Positions 52,564-63,792 of a stretch of 64,000 nt of DNA are shown piece by piece. Under the pieces are notes generated by a model. That model made no database searches and had not been told where the DNA came from. It saw only the letters and a program-made list of their open reading frames with translations. Numbering within the stretch: the stretch's first letter is position 1; each line of letters starts with the position of its first letter. The stretch lies in NCBI RefSeq assembly GCF_058153355.1, contig NZ_CM177019.1. One strand, 5' to 3'. A program made the position numbers and the translations under genes.

Positions 52564-52764
52564 TTACTTCTTCGGTTGATCCTTTTTCGGCCAGTCATCG
52601 TCATCGTCCCACTTATCGTTGAAATCACGATGCGGGGGAAGCTCCGGTTTGTTGGCGAGAAATTTCTTATGGTCGACGCGCTTGAGATCTTTAATCACGT
52701 TCAGCAGGACGCCTACCAAAAAGACAATCACCAGAATCCACCAATATTTAGCCAGCCAGTCCAT
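52564..52764 (-). CDS. ypfN: Small membrane protein YpfN (UPF0370)
   Basis: Start placed at [24 protein letters not shown], giving 66 aa. Confidence 0.8.
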
Positions 52765-52791
52765 GCTTATTTCCTCTTGCAGAACCACTCA

Positions 52792-53919
52792 TCAGGCGAC
52801 GAGCTGTTCCATGATACGTTGATACATACGGGCAAGTAGCTGCAGGTCGGCAGCGTTCACACATTCATTAATTTTATGAATAGTGGCATTGACCGGCCCG
52901 AGTTCCACCACCTGCGCCCCCATGCGGGCAATAAAGCGCCCGTCAGACGTTCCGCCTGTGGTCAGTAGCTGCGGTTTAATTTCATTATAGTGCTCAACCG
53001 CGTTAACGACCGCATCCACCAGTTTGCCGCGCGCGGTCAAAAATGGCTGCCCGGAAAGCCACCAATCCACCGTATAACGCAGTTGATGTTTTTCAAGCAG
53101 GGCAAGCACCTGCGCTTTGATCATCTCATCCGTCAGTTCGGTGCTAAAGCGGAAGTTAAACTGCACAAACAGTTCACCCGGAATAACGTTGTTACTGCCC
53201 GTTCCCGCCTGAATATTGGCAATCTGCATACTGGTCGCCGGGAAGAATTCATTACCCTGATCCCACTCAATAGCCACTAATTCATTAAGGAAAGGTGCTG
53301 CGCGATGTACCGGGTTGTCAGCCAGATGCGGGTAGGCTACATGCCCCTGCACGCCATGAATGGTGAGGTTGCAGGTTAACGATCCGCGACGACCATTTTT
53401 CACCACGTCACCAACCACTTCGATGCTCGATGGTTCGCCGACCAGGCAGTAATCGAGACGCTCATTACGCGCCATTAACGCTTCGACGACTTTTACCGTA
53501 CCGTTGTGGGCACTGGCTTCTTCATCAGAAGTGATCAGAAATGCCAGTCGGCCTGTATGGTTGGGATGTTGCGCGACAAAACGTTCTGCTGCTACCACCA
53601 TCGCCGCCAGTGAGCCTTTCATATCTGCCGCACCACGCCCGAACAACATGCCGTCACGAATGGTTGGTTCAAACGGCGGATTAATCCAACGGTCGGCGTC
53701 GCCAGGCGGTACCACGTCGGTATGTCCGGCAAAGGCTAACGTTTCGCCCTGCCCACGCCACGCCCAAAAGTTTTGCGTATCGGCAAAGTCCATGCGTTCA
53801 ACGGTAAAACCGATCGCCTGCAGACGTTCGATCATGATTGCCTGACATCCCGCATCATCAGGGCTTAAGGATGGGCGGCGAATAAGCTGCTGGGTCAGCT
53901 CAATAACCGGGCACGACAT
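52792..53919 (-). CDS. dapE: Succinyl-diaminopimelate desuccinylase
   Basis: 375-aa ORF beginning [26 protein letters not shown]. Confidence 0.95.
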
Positions 53920-53922
53920 AGA

Positions 53923-54297
<375 letters not shown>

Positions 54298-54659
54298 TTA
54301 TGAGAATAAATACTCATTTAAGGGTGAAAACATTTTGCCTGCAAATGATTATCAAGAAATATAACATTATCGAAGTATTCAAATTAACAACTATTAAATA
54401 ATATTAAACATTTTTAACGTAAACATTAAGAATATTCATCTTGTTATCTGTCTGTATTTTAACCAGAATTAAATAAGTATTAGATGCCGTATGAATATCT
54501 CGAAATGTTGCTGTGTATCACATACAAATCATCACCGCAGGACCATAGTATTTACATAAGGTTTGTCCCCCGGAGGTAGTCATCGCAGCAATCGAGTAAA
54601 TTAGCTTCACCACGGTATATTGTTTCCGTAGAATACCCATAATTATAAGAGAGGTTGTT

Positions 54660-54719
54660 ATGATTGAACGTGAACTGGGGAACTGGAAAGACTTTATCGA
54701 AGTTATGCTTCGTAAGTAA
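54660..54719 (+). CDS. ypfM: 19-aa small protein YpfM
   Basis: ATG..TAA encoding MIERELGNWKDFIEVMLRK after AGAGAGG; absent from the ORF track because of its size. Confidence 0.55.
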   Translation: MIERELGNWKDFIEVMLRK

Positions 54720-54780
54720 TTCCTGAGACAAAGTACAAACAGAAAGTACCTGCTGAACAGGTTCTTTATCGGAAAGTTGA

Positions 54781-54811
54781 AAAAGGCGACACATTGGTAT
54801 GTCGCCTTTTT
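54781..54811. terminator. Bidirectional intrinsic terminator between ypfM and acrD
   Basis: Stem ggcgac/gtcgcc flanked by aaaa and ttttt. Confidence 0.65.
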
Positions 54812-54817
54812 AATTGC

Positions 54818-57800
54818 TTATTCCGGGCGTGGCTTCAGCGGAAAGCGGCGGCGCACCAGCACAAAGAACAGCGGCACGAAGTAAATAGCCAGAATCGTGG
54901 CCGAAATCATCCCGCCCATTACGCCAGTACCCACCGCATGCTGGCCACCGGAACCGGCCCCTGTGCTGGTTGCCATTGGCAATACGTCGAAGATAAAGGC
55001 CAGAGAGGTCATCAGAATCGGACGTAAACGCTGACGGCAGGCGTGGAGCGTCGCTTCAAACAGGTCGTGACCTTTTTGGTTCATCTCGTTAGCAAATTCG
55101 ACGATCAGGATGGCGTTTTTCGCCGATAAACCAATCACCGTTAACAGGCCTACCTGAAAGTAAACGTCGTTTTCCAGCCCGCGAAGCCAGGTTGCCAGCA
55201 GCGCGCCGATAACGCCCAGCGGCACGACCAGCATTACCGAGAACGGCACCGACCAGCTTTCATACAGCGCCGCCAGACACAGGAATACCACCAGCAATGA
55301 AATGGCATACAGCGCCGGAGCCTGCGCGCCGGAGAGTCGCTCCTGATACGACATCGCCGTCCATTCCAGACCAAAGCCGCTTGGCAACTGCTTCACTAAC
55401 GATTCCATAATATCCATCGCCGTACCGGTGCTGACCCCCGGCGCGGCTTCCCCGACAATCTCTACCGCTGAATAACCGTTATAGCGTTCCAGACGCGGCG
55501 AGCCTGTTTCCCAGCGTGAGGTCGCGAAAGCAGAGAAGGGGACCATGCCACCATCTTTATTTCGTACATACCAGAGATTGATGTCATCTGGCAGCATGCG
55601 ATATGGCGCAGCGGCCTGCACATAGACTTTCTTCACGCGACCGCGATCCATAAAGTCATTCACATAGCTCGAACCCCACGCGGTTTGCAGCGTGTCGTTA
55701 ATATCGTCGATAGCAACGCCCAGCGCCTGAGCTTTACGCTGATCGATATCAATCTGCAACTGCGGACTGTCGTCGAGGCCGTTATGGCGTACACGGGTTA
55801 ACTCCGGATTTTCCGCCGCCAGAGCCAGCAACTGGTTACGTGCTGCCATCAGCGCATCGTGACCCGCACCAGCGTGGTCCTGCAACTCCATATCAAAACC
55901 CGCAGAACTGCCAAGGCCACTAATTGCTGGCGGGCTGCTGGCGATAACGCGAGCTTCTTTAATCTTATTAAATTCCTTCGTTGCACGTTCGATAATGGCA
56001 AACGAGGTGCCGGTCTTACTGTCGCGTTCGCTCCAGTCTTTCAGGCGGATAAACATTCGCGCCACGTTTTGCCCGTTACCCCCAGGGCCAGAACCAACGG
56101 TGGCAAACACCGACATGATGTTGTCTTTTTCATGGGTGAAGTAATATTTCTCGATTTGCTCAACGACTTTCAGGGTCTGTTGTTGGGTTGAACCGCTGGG
56201 CAACTGTACCGAGGTAGTAAACATGCCACGGTCTTCCAGTGGCAAGAACGACGTCGGCAAACGCAGGAACAGGAACACCATGCCGCCAAGCAGCAGGACA
56301 TAAATCACAATCCAGCGCAGGCTACGGTGGAGAATTTTTGCTACCCCTTTTTCGTAGCGTTCGGCGTTACGATTAAACATCTGGTTAAACCAGGCAAAAA
56401 AGCCTTTTTGTCCGTGATGCTCACCTTTTTTCAGCGGCTTAAGTAGCGTGGCACACAGAGCCGGAGTGAGGATCATTGCTACCAGTACTGACAGCACCAT
56501 CGCCGCAACAATGGTAATAGAAAACTGGCGATAGATAGCTCCGGTGGTGCCACCGAAGAAGGCCATTGGCACAAATACCGCCGACAGCACCATCGCAATC
56601 CCGACCAGTGCCCCCTGGATCTGCCCCATCGATTTACGTGTGGCTTCGCGAGGAGTGAGTCCTTCCTCACTCATAATACGTTCGACGTTTTCCACCACCA
56701 CGATGGCGTCATCCACCAGCAGACCGATCGCCAGCACCATCGCGAACATGGTTAAGGTGTTGACGCTGTAACCGAAGGCGTAAAGTACGGAGAAGGTTCC
56801 CATCAACACCACCGGCACGGCGATAGTTGGTATCAGCGTGGCACGGAAGTTTTGCAAGAACAGATACATAACGAGGAAAACCAGGGCGATAGCTTCCAGC
56901 AGCGTTTTCACCACGTCTTCAATGGAGGCTTTAACAAATGAGGTGGTTTCATATGCCACCTTGTATTCCAGTCCGTGTGGGAAGTACTGCGCCAGTTCGT
57001 CGAGACGATTGAGTACCAGCTCCGCTGTTGCCATTTCGTTCGCGCCGGAGGCCAGTTTTACCCCCAGCCCGGAGGCTGGCTTACCGTTGAAGCGGCTGAG
57101 ATAATCGTATTTCTCTGCCCCCATTTCCACGGTGGCGACATCGCCCAGCCTTACTTCTGAGCCGTCCTGATTCACCCGTAAGGTGATATCGCGGAACTGT
57201 TCTGGTGTTTGCAGCAGTGACTGGGCGTTAATGGTGGCGTTGAGCGCCTGCTTATCGACGGAAGGCGTACCACCAAGTTGCCCAACCGCAATCTGCGCGT
57301 TCTGTGACTCAATGGCATCAGTGACATCTTTAGCCGTCATCTGAAAACTGTTGAGTTTCGCCGGGTCCAGCCAGATACGCATTGAATATTGCGAACCATA
57401 GGCATCGATATCCCCGACGCCATTCACGCGGCTTAATGGGTCCTGAATATTACTGGCAACGTAATCGGCAATATCCTGCTTATCCATCGAACCATCGGTA
57501 GAGACGAAGGCAATGGTAAGAATGTTGGTATCGCCGGTTTTACGCACCGTCACGCCCTGATTTTGCACCGCCTGCGGCAACTTTCGCATGGCTGATTGCA
57601 GCTGGTTTTGTACTTGCTGCACTGCTTCGTCCGGATCGGTGCCCGCTTTAAAACTTAAGGTGACAGATGCCTGACCGGTGCCACTGCTTTGAGACGACAT
57701 ATACATGAGATTATCGAGGCCGGTCATATTTTGCTCGATAACCTGGGTCACGGTGTTTTCCAGCGTCTGAGCCGATGCGCCGGGGTAGTTAGCGGTTACT

Positions 57801-57931
57801 CGCACGTTAGGCGGTGCAAGATCCGGGTATTGTTCAACGGGCAATGAGAAAATCGCCAGGGTTCCTGTCAGACACAACAGGATTGCCAGCACCCAAGCAA
57901 AAATGGGGCGATCAATAAAGAAATTCGCCAT
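54818..57931 (-). CDS. acrD: RND aminoglycoside efflux pump AcrD
   Basis: 1037-aa ORF beginning [23 protein letters not shown] with 12-TM RND architecture. Confidence 0.95.
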
Positions 57932-58001
57932 TAAAAGAGGACCTCGTGTTTCTGCGTATTGTTGTTGGCATGCCTTGCTTCACTGTAGCGGCAAGGTACG
58001 G

Positions 58002-58020
58002 ACCAATCGTGGAGAAAAAA
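58002..58020 (-). promoter_or_regulatory. Candidate BaeR box upstream of acrD
   Basis: Minus strand reads TTTTTTCTCCACGATTGGT, close to the BaeR consensus TTTTTCTCCATDATTGGC, about 70 bp upstream of the acrD start. Confidence 0.5.
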
Positions 58021-58094
58021 AGGAGTTAATGTAAATTATCATGCCCTTTTATACTGAACCTTAAGTGCAAGTATTCTTTGGTCAGTAGGTGGCA

Positions 58095-59795
58095 TTACAT
58101 TAGCTGGCTTTCCTCACCCTCCGCAGAGCGAAAGCTAATACTCACTAACGTGCCGCCACCGGAAGGTTGTGAAAAAGTCAGCGTTCCACCCAGTCGTTCC
58201 GCGCGTTCGCGCATAATATTCAGACCATAGTGACCTTCGGGTTCTTTCGGTTCTCCGATGCCAATCCCGTTATCACGGATATAGACTGTGTGATTGCCGT
58301 CCGGCGCGGTGACGCAACTAACGGCTATTTCGCTGGCGTTGGCGTGCTTCATCGCATTGAGTACCGCTTCGCGAATAATTTGCAACAAATGCACCTGCAT
58401 TTGCGCATCCAGCGCCAGTGTTGGCAGACGGCAGTCGAGAGTCAGTTTTGCGCTGGTTTGATTTTGTAACGTATCCAGCATTTCCCGCAACGCGGAGGGA
58501 AGATCCGCTTGCTGCAGCGTCAGGCGGAACGTGGTCAACAGCTCGCGTAACTGTCGATAAGCATCATTCAATGCCTGGGAGAAATCGGCCATGATATTTT
58601 GTGCGGTGGCGTTATCTTCCGGTATCGAACGTTTAAGTAACGTCAACTGGATACGTAAGTAAGAAAGCACCTGGGCCAGCGAATCATGTAATTCCCGTGC
58701 GATGGTGGCACGTTCTTCCATCAACAGTAACTGCTGAAAATGCTTCTGCGCCTGATTAAAGTACAAACCGCGCCCCAGCATCGACGAAACGCTGTTAAGC
58801 AGCGGTTCTGATGATGACACGTGGCTATTTTGCCAGTGCAGTTCGCCGTAAACCGTCTCTTGCATCGTTACCGGTAAAATCTGCATCGGCAATTCGGGGT
58901 TTGGTTTCCCTTCACTAATCCGCCAGTTTTCACCGACATTCAATTCCAGATATTCAGCCGCTTCATTGTCGCGAACAATCTGCAAAATATGGCGGAAACA
59001 ATGCACATCTATCTGGCTGGTGTTCAGCGCCTGCGAACACTGATACAACACCTCCAGGCGACGCTTGGCCTCGTGGAGATCACGGGTTTTTTCTTCTACT
59101 GACGCTTCCAGCGAACGATACAATTTATGCAGCTCGCTCGACATCTGGTTAAAGGTTTTGGCCAACAGTCCCAGCTCATTGGGCAGACTGGTATCCAGCG
59201 GCGGCGAATCGAACTGGCCGTGTTCAATACGCTGACTGGCGGTAACCAGCTGATTCAGCGGGGCAACCACCTGATGGCGTATGCGGCGCAGAGTAAAAAA
59301 GACCAGCGTGAAAATACCGATGCCGCCAGTCAGGGAGATCGCCACCACCAGCAGCATTTTGCGTTCGGCGTAGTGCTGTAAAGCCAGCACGAACAGGTCT
59401 ATCTGATTAACATAATTATTAATATTGGCCTGATACCACGGCAAATCGCCCTTGCTGAGCCGATTATTCATCTCCAGCCAGTTGGCATTCAGATGCGCAT
59501 AGCGGGTTTTTACTGCCTCTGGCACATACCAGACGTTGAGATTGGTTAACACCGGTGAGTGCAGTGCCTGTTGGAACAGCTGGCGATGCGCATTGAGTTG
59601 TGGACTGCCGCTTTGCAAGTCGTAGCCTAGGCGGTAACTCTGCATACGCAACGATCCGGCAATATTGATAGCCTCAGCGTCGCGCAAACTGCTCGCCAGA
59701 GTTAGCAGTGCGATACCCGTGGAAAGAATCGACAGCAGCACAATGTAAAAAAAGGCCCGGGCCAAACTGGCCGAGACGGGGCGTTTAACAATCAC
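58095..59795 (-). CDS. narQ: Nitrate/nitrite sensor histidine kinase NarQ
   Basis: Start assigned to the internal GTG (MIVKRPVSASLARAFFYIV), giving 566 aa. HAMP and HisKA_3/HATPase regions are present. Confidence 0.9.
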   Translation of the reverse strand: MIVKRPVSASLARAFFYIVLLSILSTGIALLTLASSLRDAEAINIAGSLRMQSYRLGYDLQSGSPQLNAHRQLFQQALHSPVLTNLNVWYVPEAVKTRYAHLNANWLEMNNRLSKGDLPWYQANINNYVNQIDLFVLALQHYAERKMLLVVAISLTGGIGIFTLVFFTLRRIRHQVVAPLNQLVTASQRIEHGQFDSPPLDTSLPNELGLLAKTFNQMSSELHKLYRSLEASVEEKTRDLHEAKRRLEVLYQCSQALNTSQIDVHCFRHILQIVRDNEAAEYLELNVGENWRISEGKPNPELPMQILPVTMQETVYGELHWQNSHVSSSEPLLNSVSSMLGRGLYFNQAQKHFQQLLLMEERATIARELHDSLAQVLSYLRIQLTLLKRSIPEDNATAQNIMADFSQALNDAYRQLRELLTTFRLTLQQADLPSALREMLDTLQNQTSAKLTLDCRLPTLALDAQMQVHLLQIIREAVLNAMKHANASEIAVSCVTAPDGNHTVYIRDNGIGIGEPKEPEGHYGLNIMRERAERLGGTLTFSQPSGGGTLVSISFRSAEGEESQLM

Positions 59796-60000
59796 ACGCG
59801 TCTTCTCCACATAAAATCATTAATGTTCCAGTTTGCTGAAATGCAATTTAATCAGTGATGGGATTATTTGATCTGCCACAGTTTATAGCGAAATAGTGAC
59901 TTATTCTGGGCACATGAACATTGCCGATTCCCCTGTAAGTCGGGTAATAACAACACTCATATAAAGAATAAGGTTTTTACAACCAAAAAAGAAGGTCGTT

Positions 60001-61980
60001 ATGAATCGTTTTATTATGGCCAACAGTCAGCAATGTCTGGGTTGTCATGCTTGTGAAATCGCCTGTGTCATGGCTCACAATGATGAGCAACATGTCCTGA
60101 GCCAACACCATTTTCATCCCCGAATTACGGTTATCAAACATCAGCAGCAACGTAGTGCGGTGACCTGTCACCATTGCGAAGATGCGCCCTGCGCCCGTAG
60201 TTGCCCTAATGGCGCGATCAGCCATGTTGATGACAGCATTCAGGTCAATCAGCAAAAGTGTATTGGCTGTAAATCCTGCGTGGTAGCTTGTCCATTTGGT
60301 ACGATGCAAATCGTCCTGACACCCGTCGCGGCAGGCAAAGTTAAAGCCACGGCGCATAAATGCGACCTTTGTGCAGGTCGCGAAAGTGGTCCTGCCTGTG
60401 TCGAGAATTGTCCGGCGGACGCTCTGCAACTGGTCACTGACGCCGCACTCTCCGGCATAGCGAAATCTCGCCGCCTGCGCACCGCACGTCAGGAGCATCA
60501 ACCGTGGCATGCCAGTACTGGGGCACCAGAAATGCCGGCGATGAGTAAAGTCGAGCAAATGCAGGCAACCCCCGCGCGAGGCGAGCCGGATAAACTGGCG
60601 ATTGAAGCGCGCAAAACTGGTTTTGATGAAATTTATCTGCCATTTCGCGCCGACCAGGCACAACGGGAAGCCTCGCGTTGCCTGAAGTGCGGCGAGCACA
60701 GCGTTTGTGAATGGACCTGCCCTCTGCATAACCACATTCCGCAGTGGATAGAGCTGGTGAAAGCCGGAAATATCGACGCCGCCGTCGAGCTTTCTCACCA
60801 GACCAACACCCTGCCAGAAATTACCGGACGCGTTTGCCCGCAAGACCGTCTGTGCGAAGGAGCCTGCACCATTCGCGATGAGCACGGAGCGGTAACTATC
60901 GGCAACATCGAACGCTACATTTCGGATCAGGCGTTGGCGAAAGGTTGGCGTCCTGACTTAAGCCATGTCACCAAAGTGGATAAGCGGGTGGCGATTATCG
61001 GTGCAGGTCCGGCAGGGCTAGCCTGTGCGGATGTTCTGATCCGCAATGGCGTGGAGGTGACGGTGTACGATCGCCATCCAGAAATCGGTGGCCTGCTCAC
61101 CTTCGGCATTCCTTCTTTCAAACTGGATAAGTCCCTGCTGGCGCGTCGCCGGGAAATCTTCAGCGCGATGGGGATTCACTTCGAACTCAATTGTGAAGTG
61201 GGTAAAGATGTCTCTTTGGATTCGCTTTTGGAACAATACGACGCGGTCTTCGTTGGCGTAGGCACTTACCGTTCCATGAAAGCGGGTTTACCTAATGAAG
61301 ATGCGCCGGGCGTTTATGACGCGCTGCCATTCCTCATCGCCAACACTAAACAGGTGATGGGACTTGAAGAGTTACCTGAAGAGCCGTTTATCAATACCGC
61401 CGGACTCAATGTCGTGGTACTGGGCGGTGGCGACACCGCGATGGACTGTGTGCGTACCGCGCTGCGCCATGGCGCGAGTAACGTCACCTGTGCCTATCGT
61501 CGTGATGAAGCTAACATGCCTGGCTCGAAGAAGGAGGTGAAGAACGCCCGCGAAGAGGGGGCAAACTTCGAATTTAACGTCCAGCCGGTGGCGCTTGAGC
61601 TGAATGAGCAAGGTCATGTTTGCGGAATTCGTTTCCTGCGTACGCGTCTTGGCGAGCCGGATGCCCAGGGGCGTCGGCGTCCGGTGCCGGTGGAAGGCAG
61701 TGAGTTTGTGATGCCAGCCGATGCGGTGATCATGGCATTTGGTTTTAATCCTCATGGTATGCCGTGGCTGGAGTCGCACGGTGTAACGGTGGATAAATGG
61801 GGCCGCATCATCGCGGATGTGGAAAGCCAGTACCGTTACCAGACCACGAATCCGAAAATCTTCGCAGGTGGCGATGCCGTGCGTGGTGCGGATCTGGTGG
61901 TTACCGCAATGGCAGAAGGACGTCATGCGGCACAGGGGATCATTGACTGGCTGGGGATAAAATCAGTCAAATCTCACTAA
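60001..61980 (+). CDS. aegA: Fe-S flavin oxidoreductase AegA (GltD-like)
   Basis: 659-aa ORF with N-terminal 4Fe-4S Cys clusters and C-terminal FAD/NAD(P) motifs (GAGPAGLA, GGGDTAMD). Confidence 0.9.
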   Translation: MNRFIMANSQQCLGCHACEIACVMAHNDEQHVLSQHHFHPRITVIKHQQQRSAVTCHHCEDAPCARSCPNGAISHVDDSIQVNQQKCIGCKSCVVACPFGTMQIVLTPVAAGKVKATAHKCDLCAGRESGPACVENCPADALQLVTDAALSGIAKSRRLRTARQEHQPWHASTGAPEMPAMSKVEQMQATPARGEPDKLAIEARKTGFDEIYLPFRADQAQREASRCLKCGEHSVCEWTCPLHNHIPQWIELVKAGNIDAAVELSHQTNTLPEITGRVCPQDRLCEGACTIRDEHGAVTIGNIERYISDQALAKGWRPDLSHVTKVDKRVAIIGAGPAGLACADVLIRNGVEVTVYDRHPEIGGLLTFGIPSFKLDKSLLARRREIFSAMGIHFELNCEVGKDVSLDSLLEQYDAVFVGVGTYRSMKAGLPNEDAPGVYDALPFLIANTKQVMGLEELPEEPFINTAGLNVVVLGGGDTAMDCVRTALRHGASNVTCAYRRDEANMPGSKKEVKNAREEGANFEFNVQPVALELNEQGHVCGIRFLRTRLGEPDAQGRRRPVPVEGSEFVMPADAVIMAFGFNPHGMPWLESHGVTVDKWGRIIADVESQYRYQTTNPKIFAGGDAVRGADLVVTAMAEGRHAAQGIIDWLGIKSVKSH

Positions 61981-62047
61981 TAGCCTGCGCAGACAAATCC
62001 GGCTTCACAGCGTAAGATAATTGTTCATTTCGCGCTGTGGAGTCGGT

Positions 62048-62623
62048 ATGACGCAACAAATCACCCTCATCAAAGACAAAATTCTCTCCGATAACTATTT
62101 CACCCTGCACAACATAACTTACGATCTCACGCGAAAAGATGGCGAAGTTATCCGCCATAAACGTGAAGTTTACGATCGCGGTAATGGTGCAACGATCCTC
62201 CTGTACAACGCGAAGAAAAAGACCGTGGTTCTGATTCGTCAGTTCCGCGTCGCTACCTGGGTTAATGGCAATGAAAGCGGGCAGCTGATTGAAACCTGCG
62301 CCGGGCTGCTGGATAACGACGAACCGGAAGTGTGTATTCGTAAAGAAGCGATTGAAGAGACGGGGTATGAAGTTGGCGAAGTGCGCAAATTATTTGAACT
62401 GTATATGTCGCCAGGCGGTGTGACTGAGCTAATCCACTTTTTTATCGCCGAATACAGTGACAGCCAGCGCGCTAATGCGGGCGGTGGTGTCGAAGATGAA
62501 GATATTGAAGTGCTCGAGCTGCCGTTCAGCCAGGCGCTGGAGATGATCAAAACCGGCGAGATACGTGACGGTAAGACGATGTTATTGCTTAACTATTTGC
62601 AAACATCACATTTAATGGACTGA
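62048..62623 (+). CDS. nudK: GDP-mannose pyrophosphatase NudK (Nudix)
   Basis: Start placed at [18 protein letters not shown], giving 191 aa; Nudix box region ([21 protein letters not shown]). Confidence 0.9.
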
Positions 62624-62748
62624 AAAATAACAATAATATTTCGTTGTTTATTATTGGCTCAATCCGATAAATCCGATTGAGCCGCGCTACCTGCGCAACG
62701 AAGATACGACTTGTGCTGTTTGTTTGAACTTCTGGGGTCGTACCGTCC

Positions 62749-63792
62749 ATGCGCTATCGCATTTTCCTTCTCTTTTTTTTCGCTTTGTTGCCGACGTCTT
62801 TGGTGTGGGCGGCACCAGCGCAACGGGCATTTTCCGACTGGCAGGTCACCTGTAATAATCAAAATTTCTGTGTGGCGCGCAATACGGGCAATCATAATGG
62901 ACTGGTGATGACCCTGAGCCGCAGCGCCGGGGCGCATACCGATGCCGTTTTACGTATTGAGCGCGGCGGGTTGAAGTCGCCGGATGCGTCAGAAGGGGAG
63001 ATAGCGCCACGGCTGCTGTTAGATGGCGAGCCGTTGGCGTTAAGTGGTGACAAGTGGCGGATTTCACCATGGTTATTAGTAACCGATGATACGACAACCA
63101 TCACCGCGTTTTTGCAGATGATTCAGGAAGGGAAAGCGATCACCTTACGCGACGGCGATCAGACCATTTCACTGAGTGGCTTAAAAGCAGCGTTGTTGTT
63201 TATTGATGCCCAGCAAAAGCGCCTCGGCAGTGAAACTGCGTGGATCAAGAAAGGGGACGAACCGCCGCTCAGTGTACCGCCAGCGCCTGCGCTAAAAGAG
63301 GTCGCGGTAGTGAACCCGACGCCGACCCCACTTTCTCGTGAAGAACGTAACGATTTGCTGGATTACGGTAACTGGCGGATGAATGGTCTGCGCTGTTCGC
63401 TTGATCCGTTGCGTCGTGAAGTGAATGTGACTGCGCTGACCGACGATAAAGCATTAATGATGATTAGCTGTGAAGCAGGCGCGTATAACACCATTGATCT
63501 TGCGTGGATTGTGTCGCGTAAAAAGCCACTGGCCTCGCGCCCGGTACGGTTGCGTTTACCGTTCAACAACGGTCAGGAGACCAATGAACTGGAACTGATG
63601 AACGCAACATTCGATGAAAAATCGCGTGAACTGGTGACCTTAGCGAAAGGGCGCGGATTAAGCGATTGTGGCATTCAGGCGCGCTGGCGCTTTGACGGTC
63701 AGCGTTTTCGCCTGGTGCGTTACGCCGCAGAACCCACCTGCGATAACTGGCATGGGCCAGACGCCTGGCCCACGTTGTGGATCACCCGTTAA
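62749..63792 (+). CDS. ypfG: DUF1176-family periplasmic protein YpfG
   Basis: 347-aa ORF with signal peptide MRYRIFLLFFFALLPTSLVWA. Confidence 0.85.
   Translation: MRYRIFLLFFFALLPTSLVWAAPAQRAFSDWQVTCNNQNFCVARNTGNHNGLVMTLSRSAGAHTDAVLRIERGGLKSPDASEGEIAPRLLLDGEPLALSGDKWRISPWLLVTDDTTTITAFLQMIQEGKAITLRDGDQTISLSGLKAALLFIDAQQKRLGSETAWIKKGDEPPLSVPPAPALKEVAVVNPTPTPLSREERNDLLDYGNWRMNGLRCSLDPLRREVNVTALTDDKALMMISCEAGAYNTIDLAWIVSRKKPLASRPVRLRLPFNNGQETNELELMNATFDEKSRELVTLAKGRGLSDCGIQARWRFDGQRFRLVRYAAEPTCDNWHGPDAWPTLWITR

Follow-up and report, generated by a model that had tools for sequence, protein, structure and literature searches.

What does the 19-bp sequence that lies upstream of acrD in this stretch of Escherichia coli chromosome (64 kb at its full length, hereafter the window) do, and does it bring the efflux pump AcrD under the control of the BaeSR envelope-stress system in this particular strain? 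BaeSR control of AcrD is textbook circuitry of envelope stress and intrinsic resistance in E. coli, and an acrD BaeR box in another E. coli genome is an already known, ordinary feature. We conclude that the sequence is very probably the BaeSR operator at the acrD promoter; it is orthologous to the site described in K-12. What the present analysis adds is comparative and modest: The recognizable core of the site is TTTCTCCACGnTT rather than the full 18-mer of the published consensus, and two extra conserved elements upstream of it, together with a putative -10 hexamer at a fixed distance across the Enterobacterales, refine the search for BaeR sites.

The box and the narQ-acrD spacer

On the plus strand, positions 58002..58020 read ACCAATCGTGGAGAAAAAA, and the reverse complement of this sequence is TTTTTTCTCCACGATTGGT, so that the 19-mer belongs on the minus strand (58020..58002). 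There, it has the orientation of acrD and falls inside the 163-bp intergenic spacer that separates acrD from narQ on the E. coli chromosome (Table 1). The ORF downstream of it carries the acrD annotation in essentially all of the complete E. coli records that match (5,425). The preliminary description had placed the box upstream of acrD, and this location was borne out, both by the distance of 71-89 nt from the ATG (57931) on the acrD strand and by the identity of the ORF product with K-12 AcrD.

Table 1. Coordinates of the features at the acrD locus, as positions in the window.
Feature	Coordinates	Strand	Remarks
acrD CDS, predicted regulated gene	54818..57931	-	1037 aa; 1032/1037 residues identical to K-12 AcrD
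Shine-Dalgarno sequence of acrD, GAGGT	57941..57945	-	Invariant across 54 aligned sequences; 9 nt upstream of the ATG
Putative -10 hexamer, TACAGT	57982..57987	-	TAnAGT in 70/73 sequences, exactly 28 nt after the core start
Reported BaeR box, TTTTTTCTCCACGATTGGT	58002..58020	-	-89..-71 from the ATG; about -45..-27 from the predicted transcription start
Predicted promoter-proximal half-site, TCTCCACGATT (conserved box core)	58005..58015	-	Core in 81/91 vs 0/29 loci
Whole conserved 34-bp upstream block	58005..58038	-	High information content, columns 17-50; flanks unconserved on both sides
Predicted distal half-site, ACTCC	58022..58026	-	11 bp upstream of the proximal TCTCC; beyond the core of the published 18-bp box
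TTTACA element	58030..58035	-	20 bp upstream of the proximal half-site; 69/73 sequences, fixed spacing
narQ, upstream neighbour in acrD orientation	58095..59795	-	Stop codon delimits the regulatory spacer

For BaeR, the consensus TTTTTCTCCATDATTGGC has been published (PMC3915751, PMC3799227; Nishino et al. 2005 is given as its origin in the latter). The 18-mer at 58019..58002 on the minus strand agrees with it at 16 of 18 positions, a match that is to be expected of an acrD orthologue because the K-12 acrD site is itself among the reported sites that the consensus describes, and the comparison is circular to that extent. The two mismatches are T11C, which is also found in K-12, and C18T. At up to three mismatches, this was the sole match to TTTTTCTCCATDATTGGC in the 64-kb window. 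Dinucleotide-preserving shuffles yielded an expectation of 0.01 chance matches per window at two or fewer mismatches and of 0.26 at three or fewer, and at the latter threshold at least one match appeared in 20 of 100 shuffled windows. On these numbers, the wording “near-consensus” in the preliminary description was accurate. A shorter BaeR core, TCTNCANAA, has been attributed to Yamamoto et al. 2008 (via PMC3799227); in the window, TCTCCACGA agrees with six of its seven specified bases, and the CTNCA element is present as CTCCA.

Because the consensus is T-rich and the intergenic DNA is AT-rich, and 20 of the 100 shuffles matched at up to three mismatches, we considered whether the box is a chance resemblance in T-rich intergenic DNA, such as a UP-element-like tract or the 3′ region of narQ, with no specific regulator attached to it. 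The 0.01 matches expected per window at the two mismatches actually observed speak against this reading, and so does a spacer in which neither a terminator nor a known RNA family was found. Specifically, a consensus scan of 57800..58300 for sigma-70 promoters and terminators found none, and an Rfam scan of 57700..58300 at E ≤ 1 matched no family; therefore, no known RNA element accounts for the conservation of the spacer that is described below. A tandem CpxR box of the form GTAAA-N5-GTAAA was likewise not found in the spacer (57932..58094) at two or fewer mismatches, where a single TTTAC was the only trace of one, and the closest tandem matches in the window were at 57539 and 60545, beyond the spacer.

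Conservation of the upstream block across genera

Loci for comparison were collected by scanning one genome per species for a degenerate DNA pattern that encodes the AcrD-type N-terminus, a scan that is blind to the upstream region and that yielded 120 loci, 91 from Enterobacterales and 29 of non-enterobacterial RND genes. The core TCTCCA(C/T)G, for which the chance rate is ~0.01 per locus, occurred within the 320 nt that precede the start codon in 81 of the 91 Enterobacterales loci, and in 0 of the 29 non-enterobacterial RND loci. We also observed that some Enterobacterales (Pseudocitrobacter and Rouxiella among them; loci L038, L052, L087, and others) possess second RND genes that have a like N-terminal start and no BaeR core upstream. 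Therefore, the box tracks the acrD orthologue and not the N-terminal coding pattern by which the loci were retrieved.

We aligned 73 unique sequences, anchored on the core. In the columns that were free of the search pattern, the TT before the core was invariant and the TT after CGn was nearly so (box positions 4-5 and 15-16, respectively; n = 73). The last three positions of the 19-mer, which read GGT in the window and GGC in K-12, were the least conserved across these 73 Enterobacterales sequences. Position 19 was C in 38 of them, T in 27, G in 5, and A in 3, and boxes ending in T were found in E. albertii (..TTAGT) and Citrobacter sedlakii (..TTGGT) as well as in the window. Thus, the GGC with which the published consensus ends is non-conserved.

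Upstream of the core, the alignment displayed a direct repeat of the CTCC motif with a 10-11-bp period: The starts of ACTCC and TCTCC are 11 bp apart, a spacing that was invariant in the 73 unique sequences. The distal copy reads TCTCC in 59 of them and TCTTC in 12, always at the same spacing, and ACTCC in E. coli; we infer that this distal ACTCC/TCTCC is a candidate BaeR half-site. Still farther upstream lies the TTTACA element, which may represent half of a CpxR site or else a degenerate third half-site for BaeR, and on the other side of the core follows a TAnAGT hexamer (counts in Table 1). The mutual spacing of core, distal TCTCC, TTTACA, and TAnAGT was the same in Escherichia as in Serratia, Yersinia, Erwinia, and Rahnella, with the distance to the ATG ranging from 84 to 250 nt. 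This cross-genus conservation supports a functional element. It also effectively refutes the reading of the box as a chance resemblance, which we consider vanishingly improbable, as the core is kept at fixed spacing across many genera, whereas its flanks are not.

The TTTACA element overlaps a further symmetry in some of the sequences. In the Enterobacteriaceae other than E. coli, a near-palindrome GATAAT-TTAC-ATTATC spans it (equivalent to 58030..58038 in the window), Fur-box-like at 13 of 19 positions. The left arm of this near-palindrome is missing in Serratia, Yersinia, and Erwinia, and E. coli has ATTAAC in place of ATTATC. A Fur box had come into consideration from GATAAT-N4-ATTATC in these other genera, and it was rejected: The left arm is lost outside the Enterobacteriaceae, and the best match to the Fur box GATAATGATAATCATTATC, 13/19 over the TTTACA element, does not rise above background, as a score of 13 or more was reached in 18 of the 392 segments of equal size into which the window was divided.

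In the Erwinia loci (L025, L047, L064, and L111), AATTTCTCCACGATTA aligned with the E. coli core, at about -154 to -158 from the acrD ATG. For E. amylovora, TTCTTCACGATTACTGGC has been published as the box (PMC3915751), and the alignment of these other Erwinia loci suggests that it may be registered 3 nt off. The apparent offset would arise because the published box is anchored on the non-conserved TGGC end.

Predicted promoter architecture and related operators

If the conserved TAnAGT is the -10 hexamer, as we infer from its fixed distance to the core, transcription of acrD would start near 57975 and yield a 5′ UTR of ~44 nt, with the box at the promoter position given in Table 1. The hexamer at the corresponding -35 position is ACGATT, which is very poor. 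The poor -35 and the empty sigma-70 scan fit an activator-dependent promoter, with the scan itself giving no independent promoter call.

In the published model, envelope stress (for instance by indole, Cu/Zn, flavonoids, or tungstate) activates the kinase BaeS, which phosphorylates BaeR, and BaeR~P in turn activates acrD, with an enhancement by CpxR that requires BaeR. The pump so induced, AcrD together with AcrA and TolC, exports aminoglycosides, anionic beta-lactams, detergents, and enterobactin. For the window, we propose that BaeR, which we take to be a regulator of the OmpR/PhoB family, would bind head-to-tail to the two (T/A)CTCC half-sites 11 bp apart, that is, the distal ACTCC and the proximal TCTCCACGATT. 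These half-sites would lie at about -51 to -30 from the predicted start. Bound in this manner, BaeR would cover part of the very poor -35 and bring sigma-70 polymerase to the TACAGT -10. A class II arrangement of this type, where the regulator overlaps the -35, is known for PhoB. The two CTCC half-sites at an 11-bp period are also compatible with a dimer of winged-helix response regulators that binds in tandem.

More tentatively, the acrD operator may be a larger, ~34-bp module in which TTTACA, (T/A)CTCC, and TCTCCACGnTT stand at a fixed distance to TAnAGT in all Enterobacterales, the GGC of the consensus goes unrecognized, and TTTACA docks CpxR or a second BaeR dimer. We would sooner doubt than adopt this three-element module. 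If true, however, it would explain the observation that the enhancement of acrD by CpxR depends on BaeR.

A comparison with other BaeR-type operators places the acrD site among its relatives. The boxes of mdtABCD-baeSR and spy in K-12 have TTTTTCTCC(A/C)..ATTGGC in common with the acrD box and, like acrD, a second (T/C)CTCC upstream, at 10-11 bp for mdtA and at 22 bp for spy. They differ from it at box positions 11-12, where acrD has CG, mdtA TT, and spy TA, and acrD is set apart from the mdtA and spy boxes by its conserved copy of the TTTACA element. In spy, a TACACT lies exactly 14 nt after the GGC of the box, and TACAGT lies at equal spacing in acrD. The spacing of the spy TACACT is suggestive of a BaeR-specific promoter that would lie farther upstream than the promoter-like pair TTGACG-N16-TAATCT, which is nearer to the gene, and only weaker hexamer candidates were seen at the 14-nt spacing in mdtA.

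Comparable direct-repeat operators are those of AdeR in Acinetobacter and the pho boxes of PhoB, which overlap the -35. For the related regulator DzrR, a footprint in front of an RND pump operon covers two CTCCAT direct repeats at an 11-bp spacing (PMC10052836), and the acrD locus resembles this arrangement in its CTCC(A)-type half-sites, its 11-bp period, and its location upstream of an RND efflux gene. DzrR, AdeR, and PhoB are nonetheless other proteins in other genera, the acrD locus of E. coli has a degenerate distal repeat (ACTCCTTTTTT), and the head-to-tail dimer and the overlap with the -35 are predictions.

Probable BaeSR control of acrD and the allele of this strain

In the literature, acrD is one of four reported BaeR binding sites (PMC2731931) and a member of the small core BaeSR regulon (PMC12046405, PMC4107485), and BaeR-dependent induction of acrD has been covered in K-12, Salmonella, and Erwinia (PMC12046405 and PMC4107485 among the sources). 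On exposure to indole, acrD is described as a direct target of phosphorylated BaeR (PMC10052836). CpxR enhances acrD solely when BaeR is present (PMC2731931, PMC4107485). In Erwinia amylovora, BaeR shifts a fragment from upstream of acrD in EMSA, and acrD is induced ~4-fold by BaeR (PMC4107485 among the sources). We found no mapped transcription start or footprint for acrD in the literature, in which the data of Nishino 2005, Hirakawa 2005, and Yamamoto 2008 are known to us second-hand.

At odds with the statements on direct binding is a ChIP-exo study of MG1655 under ethanol stress, which reported BaeR peaks at spy and mdtA and none at acrD. There, acrD was also missing from the BaeR iModulon, and the authors concluded that its regulation is indirect. 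Accordingly, the conserved block could be regulatory and yet carry no BaeR in vivo under ordinary induction, with the effect of BaeSR being indirect or passing through CpxR, EvgA, or another factor that reads the block; or BaeR may occupy the site in vivo weakly or under some conditions only. Control of acrD by CpxR and EvgA has indeed been reported (PMC12046405 among the sources), and the conserved block exceeds the BaeR box and includes, in the TTTACA element, a resemblance to half a CpxR site. But the core of the block is common to the spy and mdtA boxes, both of which do have BaeR ChIP peaks, and direct binding or regulation is reported in reviews and by the EMSA in Erwinia. Moreover, the CpxR effect on acrD is strictly BaeR-dependent (PMC2731931), and the spacer is without a tandem CpxR box at two or fewer mismatches. 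The ChIP-exo negative covers a single condition, and ethanol may induce too weakly for occupancy of acrD to be seen. We therefore consider regulation without BaeR occupancy to be unlikely, and retain the reading of the box as a BaeR operator.

The preliminary description had further asserted that the box puts AcrD under BaeSR control in this strain. Control by BaeSR is favored by the orthology with K-12, by the literature, and by the cross-genus conservation, with the ChIP-exo negative counting against it. The words “in this strain” fared less well, since nothing strain-specific emerged except a rare C-to-T change at the last position of the box, in a non-conserved column. The baeSR genes are absent from the 64-kb window. 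As baeS-baeR occur in 5,422 of 5,426 complete E. coli genomes, they are almost certainly present elsewhere in the genome of this strain.

Relative to K-12 MG1655, the narQ-acrD spacer aligned without gaps and showed 7 differences in 166 bases, none of which fell inside the 34-bp block from TTTACA to ACGATT; all 7 lay elsewhere. The acrD box of the window is the orthologue of the described K-12 acrD site, which reads TTTTTCTCCACGATTGGC. The two have the narQ-acrD spacer, the strand, the 18-mer start at -88, and 17 of 18 box bases in common, and they agree fully in the 34-bp conserved block and in the putative -10. They differ by two adjacent bases at the 3′ edge of the box, where K-12 has ...ATTGGCT and the window ...ATTGGTC, i.e., a T for C at the last box base and a C for T at the next.

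The K-12 45-mer that spans the box was found exactly in 5,340 of 5,425 E. coli records, and that of the window in 18, namely those records that are at least 99% identical to it across the 701 bp around the site. Both the box allele and the lineage from which the window derives are thus rare. This rarity, and the loss of the consensus match at position 18 through the change from GGCT to GGTC, would be the grounds for supposing that the allele weakens or alters the BaeR box and marks a lineage in which BaeSR controls acrD less strongly or in another way. However, conservation is lowest at positions 17-19 of the 19-mer (n = 73), a GT ending is likewise found in the boxes of Citrobacter sedlakii and E. 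albertii, and every conserved column is intact in the window box. An altered control by this allele hence strikes us as highly improbable. The difference between K-12 and the window thus falls where variation is tolerated, and both the C-to-T and the adjacent T-to-C are predicted to be neutral.

The lineage is distinctive beyond the box. Over 57700..58400 of the window, about half of all E. coli are just 90-95% identical, and identity of at least 99% was confined to 18 of 5,425 records. The closest genome examined, R32_14_1F (from a goat), differed at 92 of 10,701 positions (52700..63400).

One difference from K-12 lies in the pump itself. Codon 982 of acrD is GAC in the window and GGC in K-12 (54986..54988, minus strand), which yields G982D in AcrD; window position 54987 is T, and it is C in the nearest genome. 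Gly982 was invariant in the other RND proteins of full length that the collected loci encode (65 of 65), non-enterobacterial ones included. The 45-mer of the window at codon 982 occurred in 0 of 5,426 complete E. coli genomes, the 18 closest of which differed from it by exactly one base, and in the closest genome examined this base was position 54987. G982D is either a private change or a sequencing error. If real, it could impair the pump whatever its regulation, possibly to the point of inactivation, and could weigh more on the phenotype than the acrD promoter does.
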